Source: Candidatus Omnitrophota bacterium (GTDB lineage Bacteria > Omnitrophota > Gorgyraeia > Gygaellales > Profunditerraquicolaceae). Taken from it: DNA of 64,000 bases. This document shows, piece by piece, positions 7,873 through 63,521 of the stretch (positions are counted from its first letter, which is position 1; each line of letters begins with the position of its first letter). Under the pieces are notes generated by a model, which ran no database searches, was not told where the DNA came from, and worked only from the letters and a program-made list of their open reading frames with translations. The translations under genes were made by a program, and so were the position numbers. The stretch is from NCBI GenBank assembly GCA_028716965.1, contig JAQUOV010000005.1, forward strand, positions 7,009-71,008, given 5' to 3'.

Positions 7873-7984
7873 GTTTAGCAATACACTCCGCGCCTACAAA
7901 GGATTGCGCGGGTGGATCTTTTTGGGCTAATACCCGGCCTTAAAGGAACGGCCGTGCACCCTTTGCGGGTAAGGAGGATAAAAG

Positions 7985-8257
7985 ATGACCAAGAAAGATA
8001 TAGTTTTAAAGGTATCAGACGAAACAAACTTAAAACAAATAGATGTTAAAAAAGTAGTGCAAAGGACATTTGATTGCATTGTCGAGGCATTGATTAGAGG
8101 CGAAAGGATTGAATTACGCAATTTTGGCGTCTTTAAGATAAAACAGAGAAAAAGTCGTACAGGCAGAAATCCGCGCACCAATCAGGTTATCCCTGTCCCG
8201 CCCAGAAAGGTAGTGATCTTTAAAGCTGGCTTGGAAATGAAACAGAAAATAAAATAA
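7985..8257 (+). CDS. hup: HU/IHF-family nucleoid-associated DNA-binding protein
   Basis: 90 aa. Conserved arm motif (ELRNFGVFKIKQRKSRTGRNPRTNQVIPVPPRKVVIFKAG). Good RBS AAGGAGGA. Confidence 0.8.
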   Translation: MTKKDIVLKVSDETNLKQIDVKKVVQRTFDCIVEALIRGERIELRNFGVFKIKQRKSRTGRNPRTNQVIPVPPRKVVIFKAGLEMKQKIK

Positions 8258-44344: not shown

Positions 44345-45130
44345 TTAACTACCTTTCTTACCTTTAGCGCCTCCTTGAGATTTTCCTGAACCAACGCCTG
44401 GTCCGCCTTTAGGTCCCGGAGGATTAACCATCTTACCCGCAGGGCCTGCGCCTGGTCCGCCTTTAGGTCCCGGAGGATTAACCATCTTACCCGCAGGGCC
44501 TGCGCCTGGTCCGCCTTTAGGTCCCGGAGGATTTTCCCAATTAGTACCTGGCCCGCCCTTTGGCCCGGGGGGATTGTTGTCACGGTCAAATCTTGGCTTT
44601 CCATCAAGACCTGCGCCTGGTCCGCCTTTAGGTCCCGGAGGATTTTCCCAATTAGTACCTGGCCCGCCCTTTGGCCCGGGGGGATTGTTGTCACGGTCTT
44701 TATTAAAAAACAAATCACTGCCCTCTTGTGTTTCTTTAGCCTTATTCCTTAGGTCCTGCTTAGACTCCTGAATATTCTTCATATCCCGCATCTTTTCCTG
44801 CAAATTTTCCTGATGTGTAAGCCTTAATTTCTCTCTAATCTGCTGGGCTGTTTTCATATCTCCTGAATCCAGCGCGGCTTTTATCTGTTGCTTTAATTGC
44901 GCTTCTTCTGCCTTAGCTGCCTGGGCATGTTGCGATATTGCCTGTTTTTGCGCTTGAAGCTGCTGCCCGGCAAGACCCGGATCCTGATCCATCTCATCCT
45001 CTTCAATATTAAAATCGGATTCATCCTCTTGGATTCCAACCCCTCCTTTTTCCTGGGCGGAGACCGTATAAGCCCCCGTTAAAAGAAAACAAAAAACAAT
45101 TGCTATAAACACCAAGAACGTTTTTCTCAT
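44345..45130 (-). CDS. Secreted Pro/Gly-rich repeat protein (NPPGPKGGPG repeats) with Q-rich coiled N-terminal half
   Basis: Signal peptide. 6+ copies of NPPGPKGGPGAG in 19-20-aa repeat units. K/G-rich C-terminus. Confidence 0.5.
   Translation of the reverse strand: MRKTFLVFIAIVFCFLLTGAYTVSAQEKGGVGIQEDESDFNIEEDEMDQDPGLAGQQLQAQKQAISQHAQAAKAEEAQLKQQIKAALDSGDMKTAQQIREKLRLTHQENLQEKMRDMKNIQESKQDLRNKAKETQEGSDLFFNKDRDNNPPGPKGGPGTNWENPPGPKGGPGAGLDGKPRFDRDNNPPGPKGGPGTNWENPPGPKGGPGAGPAGKMVNPPGPKGGPGAGPAGKMVNPPGPKGGPGVGSGKSQGGAKGKKGS
44397..44700. repeat. Intragenic tandem DNA repeats (57-bp unit x2, ~82-bp unit x2)
   Basis: Exact duplication of CCTGGTCCGCCTTTAGGTCCCGGAGGATTAACCATCTTACCCGCAGGGCCTGCG. 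Duplication of CCTGGTCCGCCTTTAGGTCCCGGAGGATTTTCCCAATTAGTACCTGGCCCGCCCTTTGGCCCGGGGGGATTGTTGTCACGGTC. Confidence 0.85.
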
Positions 45131-58917: not shown

Positions 58918-60576
58918 TCATGCAACCACCCGCGGCTTCGAAAACAGATCCAGCATCTGGTTGAGGCTGTTTAAATCCCATGTCCAGACTTTCTCTTCCA
59001 GGGCCCTCAGCCTGGCGTTAGGATCGACTTCCTTTAAGGTGACCATGATCTTACGCTGTGATTTATGGTGGTACTTTTTACATTCTCTGGAAAACTCCGC
59101 TATATCCTGTTCGGTTATGGCCTCCGGTTTAATCGCCATAATCCACAGGGACTCGCTTGAACGGCCCAATAAACCTTCTTTTAGAAGACGGTGGTTGAAT
59201 GCCAGTTGCTTTACCTCACGGAAATGGTTAAGCCTGATCTTTTTACGCTCAAACTGCATAAGGTCATCTTCAAACAACTGCAATAACTCGAATATACGGC
59301 TGGAAAGGGGTTTTTGCGATTGCCTTAAGAATTCCTGGATAAGTTCTATTAATCCGTCACGGAATTTCTCCTTCTGGCTCTTGGCATCGTACGATAAAGA
59401 GTGTATTTTCTCCTGATAAACAAAACGCATCCAATAAGCAAATAAACGGTCGCTTACCTTAATAAAATCGCCGCTGCGCGTAATAGCGTCCAACTCCAGA
59501 AGATAGTTGATCCTGGAAGCAAGCTCTTTTTTCTGCTTATGCAAGATATGGGCAATATCCTTGATCCGATTCCGGCCGCTGGCAACCAAATACAATATTG
59601 AGATATAATCATTGCTGACAGGAGAATCCAGGAAACGCTTGATATAATTGGAAAACCTCTGGTTAAGGATCCCGGATGTATTAAATAACAACTCTTCAAG
59701 AATATCCGCAAGATTGGTATAAATATTCTCCCGGTTTTGGTCATCTGATGCCAAACCCGGCCTTGCCGGCAGGCAGACACGGCCTTCTATACTGTTAGAC
59801 AAAACATCTGATATAAGCTCCAGATAAAGAGGATAGCCCCCTGTAAAATTAATTATAAAATCCTTTAGCCCAGGATATAACTTGATTGCCGGGAGGCGAT
59901 GATCAAGATAACGCCCGCTGGTATGCATATCAAAAGGTTCCACATTGATTACCTCAAAATTTCCGAACAGCAAAGAAAGCTGCTTGGAGAGGATAACCCT
60001 GGTTTTAAACATCATTGAGCTGGTTATAACATAGAGGGTATTTTTTTGCAGGATAAGCAGTTTACTCCACTCCCGGTACAAATTATTAATCCCGATACTC
60101 TCCAGGTTATGAAACTCATCCAAGAAAAGAACAGTAAATTTCCCTGTCTCCTGATAGATTAATTCAGGAAGGCTGAAAAGCTCGTTAACAATATTTACCT
60201 TTTTCCTCCGGGATAACTCATTAAGTATCGCCTTTATCTTAAGCGCCGTGTTAGGAATATACCCGGCAGACTTGGCCAGCAGGAAATCAATCTCTTCTTT
60301 TAACTCCAGCCCGCTGTTTAAAAGGAAGTTGTACAGTAAGGCCCCGATGAACCTCTTCGCAAAATCCTGGAATGAACCAGGCCTTACCTCAAGAAACACC
60401 GTAATGATCCGCGGGTCATAAAAATTATCCAGAAACTTATAAACAATACTGGTTTTCCCGACATTCTCTTCACCGATAATAGCTATATTCTGGCGATAGC
60501 CATCTTTGAGACTGCCGACGCGCTTTTGCAATATCTCGATGTAATTTCTTCGATCAAAGAATTTATCTCTTATCAT
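58918..60576 (-). CDS. AAA-type ATPase (Arch_ATPase/DUF234-like)
   Basis: Walker A GEENVGKTS. Walker B VLFLDEFHNLE. About 550 aa with C-terminal helical region. Confidence 0.6.
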   Translation of the reverse strand: MIRDKFFDRRNYIEILQKRVGSLKDGYRQNIAIIGEENVGKTSIVYKFLDNFYDPRIITVFLEVRPGSFQDFAKRFIGALLYNFLLNSGLELKEEIDFLLAKSAGYIPNTALKIKAILNELSRRKKVNIVNELFSLPELIYQETGKFTVLFLDEFHNLESIGINNLYREWSKLLILQKNTLYVITSSMMFKTRVILSKQLSLLFGNFEVINVEPFDMHTSGRYLDHRLPAIKLYPGLKDFIINFTGGYPLYLELISDVLSNSIEGRVCLPARPGLASDDQNRENIYTNLADILEELLFNTSGILNQRFSNYIKRFLDSPVSNDYISILYLVASGRNRIKDIAHILHKQKKELASRINYLLELDAITRSGDFIKVSDRLFAYWMRFVYQEKIHSLSYDAKSQKEKFRDGLIELIQEFLRQSQKPLSSRIFELLQLFEDDLMQFERKKIRLNHFREVKQLAFNHRLLKEGLLGRSSESLWIMAIKPEAITEQDIAEFSRECKKYHHKSQRKIMVTLKEVDPNARLRALEEKVWTWDLNSLNQMLDLFSKPRVVA

Positions 60577-61235
60577 GGCAAATAAAACAAGGGGTTCTGG
60601 GGCATTACGCCCTTACGTATCTCAAAATGCAGATAACTATTCTTTCCTCCGGGCGCTTGGCCGATACGCCCGATCAATGCTCCTCTTTGTACGCTTTCTC
60701 CCGGTCGCACAAAGAACTCTGAAGCCCTGGAATAGATGCTGCGTAATCCGTTTCCATGGTCAATAATTAAAGTCCTGCCAAAATTACCGAAATTATCGGC
60801 ATAAAAAACAACCTTTCCTGCGCGCGATGCCAGGATATCGGCTTCTTCAGAAATCTGAATATTTATCCCCCTGTTGATTAAATTCTGGTAGTTTGAACCG
60901 AAAGCGGAAAGGATCTTGCCTTTTAACGGCCAGATAAAATCATCGTTACCGGAAAATACCGCTTCACTCTGAGGCTTGGAACGGTTTGGTATCAACAGCA
61001 TCTGCCCGATTTCAATAGTAGCGCCTTCGGAAATATTATTCACGCGCAGGATATCATCAATCTCTACATTATACATCCTGGATATCCTCCAAAGCGTTTG
61101 CTTTGGCTCTACGCGATGGGACACCCCTGGAATAGCCTGTGGCTGAATAGGCGCTCTTGGGCCTGTATAAATCGGGCTGCTTGCGCAACCGGCTACAACC
61201 AAAGCCATCAGAATTAAAAGTATTCTTTTCATCAT
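60573..61235 (-). CDS. LysM + M23-family peptidase lipoprotein
   Basis: Lipobox VAGC. LysM (QTLWRISRMYNVEIDDILRVNNI). M23 core (GINIQISEEADILASRAGKV...IIDHGNGLRSIYS). Confidence 0.8.
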   Translation of the reverse strand: MMKRILLILMALVVAGCASSPIYTGPRAPIQPQAIPGVSHRVEPKQTLWRISRMYNVEIDDILRVNNISEGATIEIGQMLLIPNRSKPQSEAVFSGNDDFIWPLKGKILSAFGSNYQNLINRGINIQISEEADILASRAGKVVFYADNFGNFGRTLIIDHGNGLRSIYSRASEFFVRPGESVQRGALIGRIGQAPGGKNSYLHFEIRKGVMPQNPLFYLP

Positions 61236-61274
61236 CCCTACATTCTATCTACTAACTACTACATACTGATTTTA

Positions 61275-61345
61275 TAGCGGGTGAGCGGAATCGAACCGCC
61301 ATATGCAGCTTGGGAAGCTGCCATTCTACCACTGAATTACACCCG
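61275..61345 (-). tRNA. tRNA-Gly (anticodon CCC)
   Basis: Reverse complement GCGGGTGTAATTCAGTGGTAGAATGGCAGCTTCCCAAGCTGCATATGGCGGTTCGATTCCGCTCACCCGCT. Anticodon loop TTCCCAA. T loop TTCGATT. Discriminator U. No encoded CCA. Confidence 0.85.
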
Positions 61346-61612
61346 CGCTACCTAGCGCGCACTAACGCAATTCCGCTAAGCGTTAGGTGCGCAAATTATC
61401 AATGCACCCGCGCAATTCCGGTCAGCGCGGGGTACTGCCATCTACCTAGCGCGCACCAGCGCAATTTGCCCACAAGGGTAACACCAACGCAATACCCATA
61501 AGCGTTGGGTGACCTTCCTATCGCTGGGTGCTGCAAGCTATTAAATGCGCACTCGCGTAACTCCGATAAACGCCAGGTGCTGCGATGCCTTATGATGCGC
61601 ACCGACGCAACC
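61346..61612. repeat. Array of about 5 degenerate ~35-nt hairpin repeats (GCGCAC-stem-AAYTCCGNTAA-stem-GGTGCGC) plus duplicated tRNA-Gly leader/5' fragment
   Basis: Units at ~61356-61391, 61404-61435, 61479-61508, 61546-61580 and 61595-61612, with compensatory stem changes (AACGC/GCGTT vs CGCGT/ACGCC vs CCGCGC/GCGCGG). CTACCTAGCGCGCAC occurs at 61347 and 61441. CTGCCATCTACC near 61436 mirrors the tRNA body CTGCCATTCTACC. Confidence 0.5.
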
Positions 61613-62896
61613 TTACTTCTCTTTACACTCCTCCATAAGTTTAATAGAGCAATATTTTCCGCACATCGTGCATACATCATAAAGCTTGGGCTTGCTTGAG
61701 GAACGGTATTCTTTAGCCTTAGCAGGATCAATGGACAGCTTGATTTGCTTTTTCCAGTCTCTGGCCTTTCGGGCAGCGGAAATATTCTTATCCCAGCTTA
61801 TGGATGATCTCCTGCGTTTAACCAAATCTCCGGCATGGGCAGCAATACGCGAAGCAATTACTCCCTCACGCACATCATCGGCAGTTGGATGCCGTAAATG
61901 CTCAGCCGGCGTTACATAACAAAGAAAATCCGCCCCAAAACCAGCGGCTAACGCACCTCCGATGGCAGAGGTAATATGATCATAACCCGGGGCAACATCG
62001 GTTACTAAAGGCCCCAACACATAAAATGGCGCTTTCCCGCAATACTTTTTTTCGAGCAAGACATTTTTTTTAATCTGGTTTAACGGGACATGCCCCGGGC
62101 CTTCAATCATAACCTGCACCCCTCTTGCCCTGGCGCGCTTTGCTAATGCACCAAGGATTTTTAATTCCGTAATCTGCGCTTTATCCGTCGCGTCCAAAAT
62201 CGAACCCGGTCTTAACCCGTCCCCCAGGCTCAAAGTCACGTCATATTTATTGGCGATATCCAGGATTTGTTCAAAATGCGTATAAAAAGGATTTTCCTTT
62301 TTATTCCGTTTTATCCAATTAGCGATGATCGCTCCGCCGCGCGAAACAACACCCATAAGCCTTTTCTGCTTTTCTAAAGCCTTCAGGCTCCTGCCTGTTA
62401 CCCCGCAGTGTATCGTAAAAAAATCCACCCCTTGCCTGGCCTGCTCATCTAATACATCCAGGATATCCGCCGCCTTAAATTTAATAAAATCATTATTTCT
62501 TTCCTGGGCCCTGACTGCCACCTCGTATACCGGTACAGTCCCCAGCGGTACGCTTGAGTATTTTAAAGCCTGCTGCCTCATCTTAAGCAGATCCCCGCCT
62601 ACACTTAAATCCATCAAGGTATCGGCCCCATACCCTATAGCAACCTTCAGCTTCCTTATTTCATCGGAAATCCTGGATTCATCCGTAGATGTTCCGATAT
62701 TAGCGTTGACCTTAGTAGAGAGCATACTGCCCACTGCGCAGGGTTTTTTAATCTTATGATTTTTATTTAAGGGGATAACTGCCTTACCCTGGCGGATAAG
62801 GAGCATTAATTGGGCCGGATTAATACCTTCCGTTCGCGCTACTTTACGCATAATCCCGGTGATAATATTTTTCTTTGCGTATTCCAGTTGGGTCAT
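61613..62896 (-). CDS. thiC: Phosphomethylpyrimidine synthase
   Basis: ThiC core motifs. C-terminal CTMCGKYCS Fe-S cysteine cluster. ATG at 62896, one nt after the thiE stop. Confidence 0.9.
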   Translation of the reverse strand: MTQLEYAKKNIITGIMRKVARTEGINPAQLMLLIRQGKAVIPLNKNHKIKKPCAVGSMLSTKVNANIGTSTDESRISDEIRKLKVAIGYGADTLMDLSVGGDLLKMRQQALKYSSVPLGTVPVYEVAVRAQERNNDFIKFKAADILDVLDEQARQGVDFFTIHCGVTGRSLKALEKQKRLMGVVSRGGAIIANWIKRNKKENPFYTHFEQILDIANKYDVTLSLGDGLRPGSILDATDKAQITELKILGALAKRARARGVQVMIEGPGHVPLNQIKKNVLLEKKYCGKAPFYVLGPLVTDVAPGYDHITSAIGGALAAGFGADFLCYVTPAEHLRHPTADDVREGVIASRIAAHAGDLVKRRRSSISWDKNISAARKARDWKKQIKLSIDPAKAKEYRSSSKPKLYDVCTMCGKYCSIKLMEECKEK

Positions 62897-62897
62897 T

Positions 62898-63521
62898 TTA
62901 TTCCAGGGTAGCTTTTCTGATCTTATCGAATAATCTTTTTGATGCGCCTGCGGGGTCACCGGATTTTAAAATCGCCCTGCAGATTGCAACGCGCCTTGCC
63001 CCCGCATCTATAATTTCTTTTATATTCACTTCATTGATACTGCCTATGGCAAAATATGGTATCTTTATCCTTCCTTTTAGCTGGCGAAGCATCTCCAGCC
63101 CGATTGCCCTATATTCGGGCTTAGTGGCAGTAGGATAGATAGGCCCAATGCCGATATAATCCGCCCCCTCCTGCTGTGCTTTCATGGCCTGCTCCAGGTT
63201 ATGGCAAGATATGCCGATGATCTTATCTTTACCTAACAATCTCCTGGCATATTTCAGCGGAAGATCATGCTGCCCCAGATGCACTCCGTCAGAACCGGAA
63301 AGAATGGCTATATCAATGTAATCATTAATAATAAAGAGCGTTTTAGTTTTTCTAAGCCTCTTTGCCAGCTTAAACGCCGAATTTAATACCTGCGATTTAT
63401 CGGAAACTTTATCGCGCAGTTGGATTACCCCCACCCCATCAAAAGGCAACCCCGGAAGATCCCCCTTATCTAAAATCAGATAGAGAAGAGATTTTTCTAA
63501 AAGAGTCTTTCTCGATCGCAT
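62898..63521 (-). CDS. thiE: Thiamine-phosphate synthase
   Basis: YLILD, IQLRDK, GADYIGIGPIYPTATKP, PYFAIGSI motifs. Confidence 0.85.
   Translation of the reverse strand: MRSRKTLLEKSLLYLILDKGDLPGLPFDGVGVIQLRDKVSDKSQVLNSAFKLAKRLRKTKTLFIINDYIDIAILSGSDGVHLGQHDLPLKYARRLLGKDKIIGISCHNLEQAMKAQQEGADYIGIGPIYPTATKPEYRAIGLEMLRQLKGRIKIPYFAIGSINEVNIKEIIDAGARRVAICRAILKSGDPAGASKRLFDKIRKATLE

Follow-up and report, generated by a model that had tools for sequence, protein, structure and literature searches.

Covarying two-hairpin modules between thiC and tRNA-Gly in Candidatus Omnitrophota, a candidate family of cis-acting RNA leaders

What occupies the non-coding spacer between thiC and the tRNA-Gly(CCC) gene in Candidatus Omnitrophota, and does its repeated sequence act as DNA or as RNA? 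We explored this in a contig stretch of 64,000 nucleotides (hereafter the window), in which the spacer measures 266 nt (61347-61612). A preliminary description of the same DNA had noticed 4-5 copies of a hairpin repeat there; the array is real, but it had been read on the plus strand, whereas the element reads on the minus strand. Read in this way, the spacer may be a local amplification, in tandem and by nesting, of an Omnitrophota-specific 47-nt module made of two hairpins, A and B, and the module may in turn be a low-copy, insertion-prone and lineage-specific leader that acts in cis as RNA, masking the 5' end of the downstream tRNA or a downstream Shine-Dalgarno (SD) sequence. We propose this joint reading tentatively and give it a little less than an even chance.

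Hairpin A consists of CACC-N4-GC, an 11-nt loop (consensus UNANNGGAAUU) and GC-N4-GGUG, with one C always bulged; it measures 30-36 nt and 9-12 bp overall, lies in intergenic DNA, and its middle base pairs covary freely. Hairpin B follows directly on the 3' side, without a gap, as a 6-bp stem of free sequence closed by an NNGU tetraloop. The 3' strand of B is itself the downstream functional site, either the last three leader bases together with the first 2-3 bases of the tRNA, or an SD. To our knowledge, and judging by Rfam, a conserved leader that base-pairs with the very start of a bacterial tRNA is new, and such pairing is an unusual feature among structured intergenic repeats and leader hairpins. 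That the loop and frame of A are so strictly conserved suggests a factor that recognises this hairpin.

Both helices covary strongly. Across 31 distinct units, 96.8% of the cells of the alignment were paired and 10 of the 15 pairs showed double-sided changes, a result matched by none of 500 shuffles, while slid controls reached 14-50% pairing; helix B, which had not been used in picking the units, was 94% paired with covariation at all six of its pairs. The 31 units had been picked with a regular expression demanding pairing in A, and the count was therefore repeated on ten tRNA-proximal copies from loci chosen by ThiC homology alone, where 98.7% of the cells were paired, 8 of 15 pairs were compensatory, and B was 100% paired with two covarying pairs. 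Even the apparently invariant frame of A covaries at times (CAUC/GAUG, UACC/GGUA, CGCC/GGCG). The stems hold 23 G.U as against 9 A.C pairs, an excess that modestly favours folding of the sense strand. As for the window itself, where stems had been said to vary while pairing was kept, TAACGC/GCGTTA, CCCGCGC/GCGCGGG and CCAACGC/GCGTTGG pair perfectly, but the pair given as CGCGT:ACGCC is imperfect and the distal TGGCGT/ACGCGA carries one mismatch.

A repeat search of the window returned four copies of a 34-nt unit, starting at 61357, 61402, 61479 and 61547, 68-76% identical and differing in their stems, with the spacings of 45, 77 and 68 nt between them occupied by module parts. Run with filters off over the 64-kb window, the covariance model gave four significant matches, all on the minus strand of the spacer (73.5, 57, 33.2 and 33.1 bits; E 3e-17 to 1e-6), and matches to an IUPAC pattern of the unit were likewise confined to the spacer; a loop-only pattern allowing three mismatches was uninformative in the window (32 matches, 33 expected). 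When the transcribed minus strand was parsed by sequence, every base of the spacer could be assigned to parts of A/B modules, which make up six copies, tandem and nested: hairpin A is complete in five, one of which sits within the loop of another, and truncated in the sixth (Table 1). The same nested architecture occurs at related loci (L027, L094, L013, L012, L020 and L003), and comparable truncated first copies, with the same type of B-like junction, follow the thiC stop in L003, L015 and L016. While the rest of the 64-kb window holds no further unit, copies were found at several types of site across Omnitrophota; together with the strong covariation, these copies in relatives uphold the earlier suggestion of a family of structured hairpins selected for secondary structure.

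Relatives' loci were gathered through protein homologues. In 260 kb of Omnitrophota loci the covariance model found 62 copies, all 62 of them in sense orientation to the neighbouring genes and none antisense. The order thiC then tRNA-Gly(CCC) is kept down to 63% ThiC identity (76 loci tabulated), and the gap between the two varies even among relatives at 80-87% ThiC identity, holding nothing, modules or unrelated inserts: one module in L001, L014, L017 and L028, and two to about five in the window, L003, L012, L015, L022, L025, L027, L045, L069 and L079. The module also precedes other tRNA genes, and its distance to them is fixed: 10 nt separate the foot of hairpin A from the ARAGORN-called 5' end of tRNA-Gly(CCC), Gly(GCC) or Gly(UCC), and 11 nt in the case of tRNA-Pro(GGG). 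Gly(GCC) follows tRNA-Lys-Leu in these clusters, Gly(UCC) follows tRNA-Thr-Tyr, and Pro(GGG) follows gpsA, so that some copies lie between two tRNAs (Tyr-Gly, Leu-Gly); no module was found before ten neighbouring or other tRNAs (Leu, Lys, Thr, Tyr, Arg).

At a second type of site the anchor is a ribosome-binding site. At the junction between PFK and the SIS-domain gene, 3.4 kb upstream of thiC, hairpin B is an anti-SD/SD helix of the form TCCTCC-NNGT-GGAGGA (for example TCCTCC-ACGT-GGAGGA) in L001, L003, L010, L016, L017, L020 and L096; this description does not extend to the copies of the window. There the distance to the upstream stop codon varies while that to the ATG is fixed at 4-7 nt, and module-free relatives keep an SD in a spacer of 10-20 nt (L014, TAAGGAGTGGAGGAAAAAAATG). 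A further type of site is the 5' side of an aspartokinase gene (lysC) in L094. Scanned with a strict pattern, 185,579 species genomes yielded 15 matches, 13 of which were counted as true modules, ten in metagenome-assembled genomes labelled Omnitrophota. Matches with other labels were L088, L097 and L101, of which L088 and L097 are true modules and L101 has no linker or adjacent tRNA; the match in L089 is a chance one. Seven pattern matches in viral contigs (IMG/VR) were confirmed in no case by the covariance model. Rfam 15, searched with the window and 13 loci, reported only tRNA, and tmRNA in L093, at gathering score; down to E=10, the region 61200-61700 gave besides tRNA only a chance match to snoR116, outside the spacer (61200-61243, 14.2 bits against a gathering score of 47, E 9.9). 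No description of the module was found in the literature.

The copy next to the tRNA is strongly conserved. This proximal unit, the 47 nt upstream of the tRNA, is identical at 47 of 47 positions between the window and L003, L008 and L099 and at 46 of 47 in L097, whereas synonymous third positions of thiC are only 37-50% identical in genomes sharing 46-47 of these positions. Other lineages differ at 7-17 of the 47 positions, mostly in a compensatory way. Moreover, in most arrays (window, L003, L022, L025) the best score belongs to the tRNA-adjacent unit, and the distal copies there lose B. Identity, covariation and fixed downstream position point to purifying selection on a folded sense-strand molecule tied to the site downstream of it.

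At the same time the module comes and goes. At three loci close relatives show clean empty sites, the window and L003 arrange their units in different orders, and the insertion point of nested copies recurs in the loop after GG. In L012 the same inner variant (CACCTGGCC...GGCCAG with TTGCC/TTCGCC-TCGT-GGC) stands at both the PFK-SIS and the thiC-tRNA junctions (L012:863 and L012:4332). Dispensability, empty sites, tandem and nested copies and this shared variant point to an insertion-prone element.

The thiC-tRNA spacer of L010 and L031 holds, in place of hairpin A, a long terminator-like hairpin with a U-run, and AGGTAGT, the 3' half of the B linker, abuts the tRNA, which suggests that the module was overwritten in this lineage.

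How might such a module act? In the reading that we favour, it would be transcribed together with thiC and the tRNA, and B would form once the tRNA 5' end or the SD emerges, hiding it. At tRNA genes, the 3' acceptor strand, made later, would displace B, and hairpin A would remain as a stable leader structure 10 nt ahead of the RNase P site; RNase P would then free the leader, and the hairpins would cap the 3' end of the thiC mRNA. At SD-type copies, B would occlude the ribosome-binding site. New copies would arise by insertion or duplication into transcribed leaders and then be kept for their action as RNA in cis, and in arrays the tRNA-adjacent copy alone would keep an intact B while the distal ones decay.

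Co-transcription is plausible because the spacer lacks a promoter and a terminator, as far as a sigma-70 consensus scan and a terminator scan of 61347-61612 returned none, and because thiC abuts or overlaps tRNA-Gly in relatives. The minus-strand order in the window is thiE, thiC, spacer, tRNA-Gly(CCC) and a LysM/M23 peptidase gene. Across the loci, modules occupy two cistron junctions of one co-directional cluster (PFK, then SIS-CTP transferase-thiD2-thiE-thiC, then tRNA-Gly-M23). ThiC of the window is 100% identical to the 427-aa protein P0001, annotated as ThiC of Candidatus Omnitrophica (PF01964), and its nearest relatives are every one from Omnitrophota. In 26 of the 76 related loci the thiC open reading frame (ORF) enters tRNA-Gly(CCC), by 10 nt in 22 loci and by 21 nt in four (among the overlapping loci are L011, L021, L024, L035, L036, L039-L041, L047, L048 and L056). 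Overlapping thiC genes have as their stop the TAA formed by tRNA nucleotides 8-10 (...gcG CGG GTG TAA), so that cutting of a shared transcript by RNase P would yield thiC mRNA with no stop; production of the tRNA would then destroy the thiC stop codon. With this unusual gene arrangement, many Omnitrophota would thus face RNase P processing and thiC translation as competing events on one transcript. In the window the module array parts the two genes and thiC has its own stop, so that module insertion would be one route by which this conflict is relieved.

In favour of this reading, leader and tRNA together are predicted to fold into hairpin A and a cloverleaf. For SD-type leaders the prediction gives two near-isoenergetic folds, one in which B forms and one in which A is extended and the SD left free; the anti-SD of these copies can pair with the SD or with purine-rich bases upstream of A, and the predicted folds split between the two. 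A conserved bistable switch in which extended A excludes B was considered and dropped, only one extra base pair being conserved.

Several results weigh against masking by a cis-acting leader. The extended-A alternative is conserved for one additional base pair only. The predicted fold of leader and tRNA shows an extended hairpin A, a residual B of 3 bp and a normal cloverleaf; with B cut to 3 bp in the mature fold, any masking would be transient. For the whole spacer, the minimum free energy z-score is unremarkable on the sense strand (-0.83) compared with the other strand (-2.61). Copies other than the proximal one score as high as it does in L069 and L092. The module is dispensable: relatives at 80-87% ThiC identity (L011, L021 and L024) have none. 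The pattern used for the genome scan ended in GTGCGC, so that only copies whose B pairs with a GCG start could be recovered, and the association with Gly and Pro tRNAs owes part of its strength to the search itself, although the ten neighbouring or other tRNAs had no module. Run over 308 kb surrounding the HU genes in other Omnitrophota, the covariance model found no copies. Finally, the genes served (Gly and Pro tRNAs, the SIS-domain gene, lysC and perhaps HU) are so heterogeneous that no single regulatory logic is evident.

A bolder form of the masking reading, which we consider unlikely, makes the module a programmable device of Omnitrophota: a dedicated factor would read the A frame, B would be matched to a tRNA 5' end or SD, and insertion would be site-directed, the element's own loop included among the targets. 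If so, maturation of Gly and Pro tRNAs and translation of a few genes would come under one control. More generally, the covariation behind the module makes it a concrete RNA element for study in a phylum whose molecular biology has hardly begun. Should a trans-acting factor or an insertion enzyme exist, it would be either a new link between tRNA maturation and the control of translation or a new kind of miniature mobile element; if neither exists, the module would be another lineage-specific hairpin repeat, mainly of value as a marker.

Among the competing explanations, the one that survives best holds that the module is selfish DNA resembling repetitive extragenic palindromes (REP), miniature inverted-repeat transposable elements (MITE) or palindrome-associated transposable elements (PATE). 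Its hairpins would be recognised as single-stranded DNA by a transposase of the Y1/RAYT (REP-associated tyrosine transposase) or IS200/IS605 type, which would copy the 47-nt unit into preferred targets, its own loop included, and RNA effects would be by-products. We regard this as rather unlikely, for all that it would account for the presence/absence differences and clean empty sites at three loci, for tandem and nested copies with their recurring nesting point in the loop after GG, for the identical inner variant at two loci of L012 and for the patchy spread across the phylum. Sense-only orientation could follow from lagging-strand targeting, and the 10-nt distance from the hairpin foot to host DNA presumably recalls the right end of IS608. 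Copy number is low, however (one locus in 64 kb, none in 308 kb), per-genome numbers being an extrapolation from about 0.9 Mb of loci that are in part redundant and in part biased; none of the 62 copies is antisense; changes at orthologous sites are compensatory; 46-47 of 47 positions are identical at near-saturated synonymous divergence; and G.U pairs outnumber A.C pairs. Moreover, the B stem matches the sequence downstream of it (GCG of the tRNA or GGAGGA of the SD), which is unexpected for the fixed end of an element, no GTAG head stands 5' of the hairpin, and no transposase gene was seen near any copy, though none was searched for.

Comparison with known repeat families follows the same lines. 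Like the RAYT-associated REP/BIME (bacterial interspersed mosaic elements) and REPINs of Proteobacteria, the modules are short imperfect palindromes in transcribed intergenic DNA, often clustered, variable in copy number among relatives and selected for hairpin formation, and hairpin A, at 30-36 nt, falls within the 20-40 nt of an extragenic imperfect palindrome of this class; REP/BIME and REPINs are known to affect mRNA stability and translation. The label REP-like given in the preliminary description fits loosely at best, as the module is low-copy and in one orientation, whereas REP are high-copy, dispersed and in both. It also lacks a GTAG-type head, its 5' flank varying (GCG, CAG, CGG, AGG) and GGTAG standing 3', in the B linker, and it differs by the conserved B that overlaps a tRNA 5' end or SD and by copies nested in its loop. 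ERIC and the Correia/NEMIS repeats of Neisseria share with it intergenic insertion, co-transcription and presence/absence polymorphism, and alter the processing or translation of adjacent RNA. They are, however, 100-150 bp long, with terminal inverted repeats, TA duplications and hundreds of copies in both orientations, whereas the module measures 47 nt and keeps a fixed distance from a tRNA 5' end or SD. With the subterminal hairpins of IS200/IS605 and with PATEs it presumably shares an imperfect hairpin with an extrahelical base, a short fixed distance to host DNA and a stem conserved in structure but not in sequence; it differs in that its B stem changes with the flanking host sequence and in that no second element end or transposase gene was seen (none having been searched for).

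The next explanation takes the hairpins as passive punctuation of a long operon transcript, stopping 3' exonucleases once RNase P or another enzyme has cut and insulating folds, so that tRNA or ribosome-binding-site folding is kept apart from ribosome traffic on the upstream ORF, with no factor and no masking. In its favour, two junctions between cistrons of the co-directional cluster carry modules, A is a stable hairpin, and the terminator scan of the spacer was empty; since thiC runs into the tRNA in 26 of 76 relatives, a spacer with its own stop and hairpins would moreover remove the conflict with RNase P. A passive stabiliser, however, would need neither the conserved 11-nt loop nor the CACC/GGUG and GC/GC frame, nor a covarying B that takes in the downstream site at a distance fixed downstream rather than upstream, and the copies that separate two tRNAs (Tyr-Gly, Leu-Gly) have no mRNA to shield. 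We judge this explanation unlikely.

SD-sequestering leaders (riboswitch platforms and RNA thermometers) offer a parallel for the masking reading, in that B at PFK-SIS is a perfect anti-SD/SD helix near the start with an alternative pairing; the likeness is confined to the PFK-SIS copies and inapplicable to those of the window. The module differs in having no aptamer-sized domain and no Rfam match, and in being dispensable, tandem or nested, and found before tRNAs as well. As with functional tRNA spacer fragments such as 3'ETS-leuZ of E. coli, RNase P would set a stable hairpin RNA free from its tRNA precursor. The array resembles the sponge RNAs CsrB/RsmZ in having GGA-containing loops, but GGA is not invariant: loop positions 19-21 read GGA, UGA, GGU or UGU, with UGA or GGU in many copies. 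Judged by analogy, the module would work most like a REP-type transcribed hairpin combined with the occluding leader helix of riboswitch expression platforms.

A signal at the level of DNA is very unlikely, whether a promoter whose discriminator is GC-rich or an operator bound by a dimeric protein, acting on the tRNA and the genes downstream. It draws on GCGCACC right after an AT-rich box (TGATAATTT), an arrangement that we take to resemble stringent stable-RNA promoters such as rrnB P1 (TATAAT-GCGCCACC), on GGAAT-N18-GT, presumably fitting the spacing of some extracytoplasmic function (ECF)-type promoters, and on the palindromic linker NNTAGGTANN. The start sites predicted from it, however, would lie within the tRNA or past the SD, copies also occur within polycistronic tRNA clusters, the sigma-70 scan of the spacer was empty, and compensatory changes over 15 base pairs together with the G.U excess speak for a folded single strand and not a duplex site.

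Just before the proximal module, the non-hairpin spacer CATTGATAATTT (61393-61404) is conserved across genomes with near-saturated synonymous sites, and TTGATAATTT is kept in the window, L003, L008, L099, L097 and L022. This spacer may be an extended -10-like box followed by the GC-rich discriminator GCGCACC, in which case hairpin A would be the 5' end of the tRNA primary transcript.

Scars of site-specific integration had also been suggested, and a duplicated tRNA leader joined to a piece of the tRNA body had been taken for a deletion-derived partial tRNA copy. The leader duplication is exact: GTGCGCGCTAGGTAG is repeated, reading CTACCTAGCGCGCAC on the plus strand at 61348-61362 and 61442-61456, 94 nt apart, and a 25-nt repeat family includes it (61442-61466 against 61348-61372, 92% identity). 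The supposed piece of tRNA body (GGTAG-ATGGCAG, 12/13 with a gap) is not significant, its similarity being reached by 113 of 2000 shuffles, and is missing from the array of the closest relative, L003; its GGTAG is the repeated B linker and its GCAG the usual inter-unit junction, GGTAGCTTGCAG followed by CACC. Although tRNA genes are known hot spots of integration, the 15-mer of the leader occurs twice, genuine 5'-half copies of tRNA-Gly precede the intact gene in L034 and L067, and L090 has an element inserted in tRNA-Pro, a reading of the spacer as integration scars at tRNA-Gly or decayed tandem tRNA copies is close to refuted, as that similarity fails, A/B modules account for the whole spacer, modules stand 5' of the tRNA, and the same module precedes ORFs with no tRNA nearby.

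The spacer also fails to match several standard classes of element. Stacked terminators, another idea of the preliminary description, do not fit, since the hairpins are followed by GCUAGGUAGC or CAUUGAUAAUUU and not by a U-tract, and the terminator scan was empty. Copies only 68-76% identical with differing stems do not make a CRISPR array, and TRF reports no array here; as read from the alignment, the stem ends are CACC/GGUG, without the GTTRRRY core of integron attC sites; and with no significant copy of the tRNA body, and one tRNA found here by ARAGORN, there is no tRNA att scar or pseudogene.

Other candidates were tried and rejected. Spacing would put the start sites of a sigma-70, sigma-54 or ECF promoter inside the tRNA, and the covariation speaks for a folded strand. 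Base-pairing between the A loop and the T-loop of the tRNA fits Gly(CCC) and Gly(UCC) but not Gly(GCC) or Pro, and for T-box-like UGGN pairing with the tRNA 3' end the Pro discriminator base does not fit. A hammerhead or other three-way-junction ribozyme for the nested form is contradicted by mismatched junction strands and has no Rfam match. Derivation of the module from the tRNA itself fails on non-significant similarity, and a CsrA sponge or site on the lack of conserved GGA in the loops.

Table 1. Positions of the module parts and neighbouring features in the window (RNA letters are given for hairpins as read on the minus strand)
Feature	Positions	Strand	Details
thiE	62898-63521	-	
thiC (phosphomethylpyrimidine synthase)	61613-62959	-	ORF; stop TAA 61613-61615; likely true start 62893
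Truncated module	61597-61610	-	loop end and 3' arm of hairpin A only (UUGCGUCGGUGCGC); adjoins thiC stop
B-like junction	61583-61596	-	AUCAUAAGGCAUCG
Module 4, hairpin A	61550-61579	-	CACC-UGGCGU / UUAUCGGAGUU / ACGCGA-GUG; one G.G mismatch; covariance-model match 61531-61582, 32.6 bits (filters off 61519-61582, 33.2 bits)
Module 4, hairpin B	61534-61549	-	CGCAUU-UAAU-AGCUUG; decayed, pairing mostly gone; read from sequence
Composite module	61454-61530	-	outer A arms 61522-61530 (CACCCAGCG) and 61454-61465 (AUU-GCGCUGGUG)
Inner module, in outer loop of composite	A 61482-61511; B 61466-61481	-	B UUACCC-UUGU-GGGCAA, one A.C mismatch; covariance-model match 61463-61514, 57 bits
Composite module, hairpin B	61438-61453	-	CGCGCU-AGGU-AGAUGG; 3' strand decayed; includes duplicated tRNA leader
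Module 2, hairpin A	61405-61434	-	UACC-CCGCGC / UGACCGGAAUU / GCGCGG-GUG; no B; covariance-model match 61397-61437, 33.1 bits
Spacer between modules 2 and 1	61393-61404	-	CAUUGAUAAUUU; conserved, non-hairpin
Module 1 (tRNA-proximal), hairpin A	61357-61392	-	GCG-CACC-UAACGC / UUAGCGGAAUU / GCGUUA-GUG-CGC; 12 bp, bulged C; covariance-model match 61341-61392, 73.5 bits, E 3e-17
Module 1, hairpin B	61344-61359	-	CGCGCU-AGGU-AGC then GCG; first bases overlap foot of hairpin A; 3' strand = leader -3 to -1 and tRNA +1 to +3
tRNA-Gly(CCC)	61276-61346	-	ARAGORN; Rfam RF00005, 68.2 bits; CCA not encoded
LysM/M23 peptidase gene	60573-61235	-	
Tentative A-like hairpin	7884-7914	+	CACUCCGCGC / CUACAAAGGAUU / GCGCGGGUG; weak covariance-model match, 13.4 bits, E 0.13

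Far from the spacer, a single hairpin in the window (last row of Table 1) may tentatively be a relative of the module. It opens a hairpin insertion of about 85 nt in the 5' untranslated region of an HU/IHF gene (7881-7984; gene 7985-8257), after a TTGACA-17-TATTAT promoter. L109, L116 and L126 keep the HU promoter but have no insertion, their leaders measuring 11-32 nt from the shared ...TTAGCAATA box to the ATG.

In other genomes, three observations concern modules or tRNA genes in unusual settings. L093 holds an orphan module with intact B (L093:4959-5010), about 70 nt downstream of tmRNA, followed by GCGAGUG... with no detectable tRNA or Rfam family, and by a lipoprotein-like ORF about 50 nt further on. 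In the spacers of L034 and L067 (also L053, L052 and L044) the intact tRNA is preceded by other repeats (gaacgacaaaggtttttaacag) and by halves of tRNA-Gly that run from its 5' end as far as the anticodon loop; these look like remnants left by integration or recombination at this tRNA in those other lineages. On the minus strand of L090:5900-6535, a module-preceded tRNA-Pro(GGG) is broken just past the anticodon loop, with AT-rich DNA and an ORF after it, and neither ARAGORN nor Rfam calls a tRNA there; the insert looks like an element integrated in tRNA-Pro.

Elsewhere in the window, a secreted protein gene on the minus strand (44345-45130) contains perfect tandem DNA repeats at 44395-44698, with periods of 54 and 111 nt and 100% identity, which encode collagen-like NPPGPKGGPG units.

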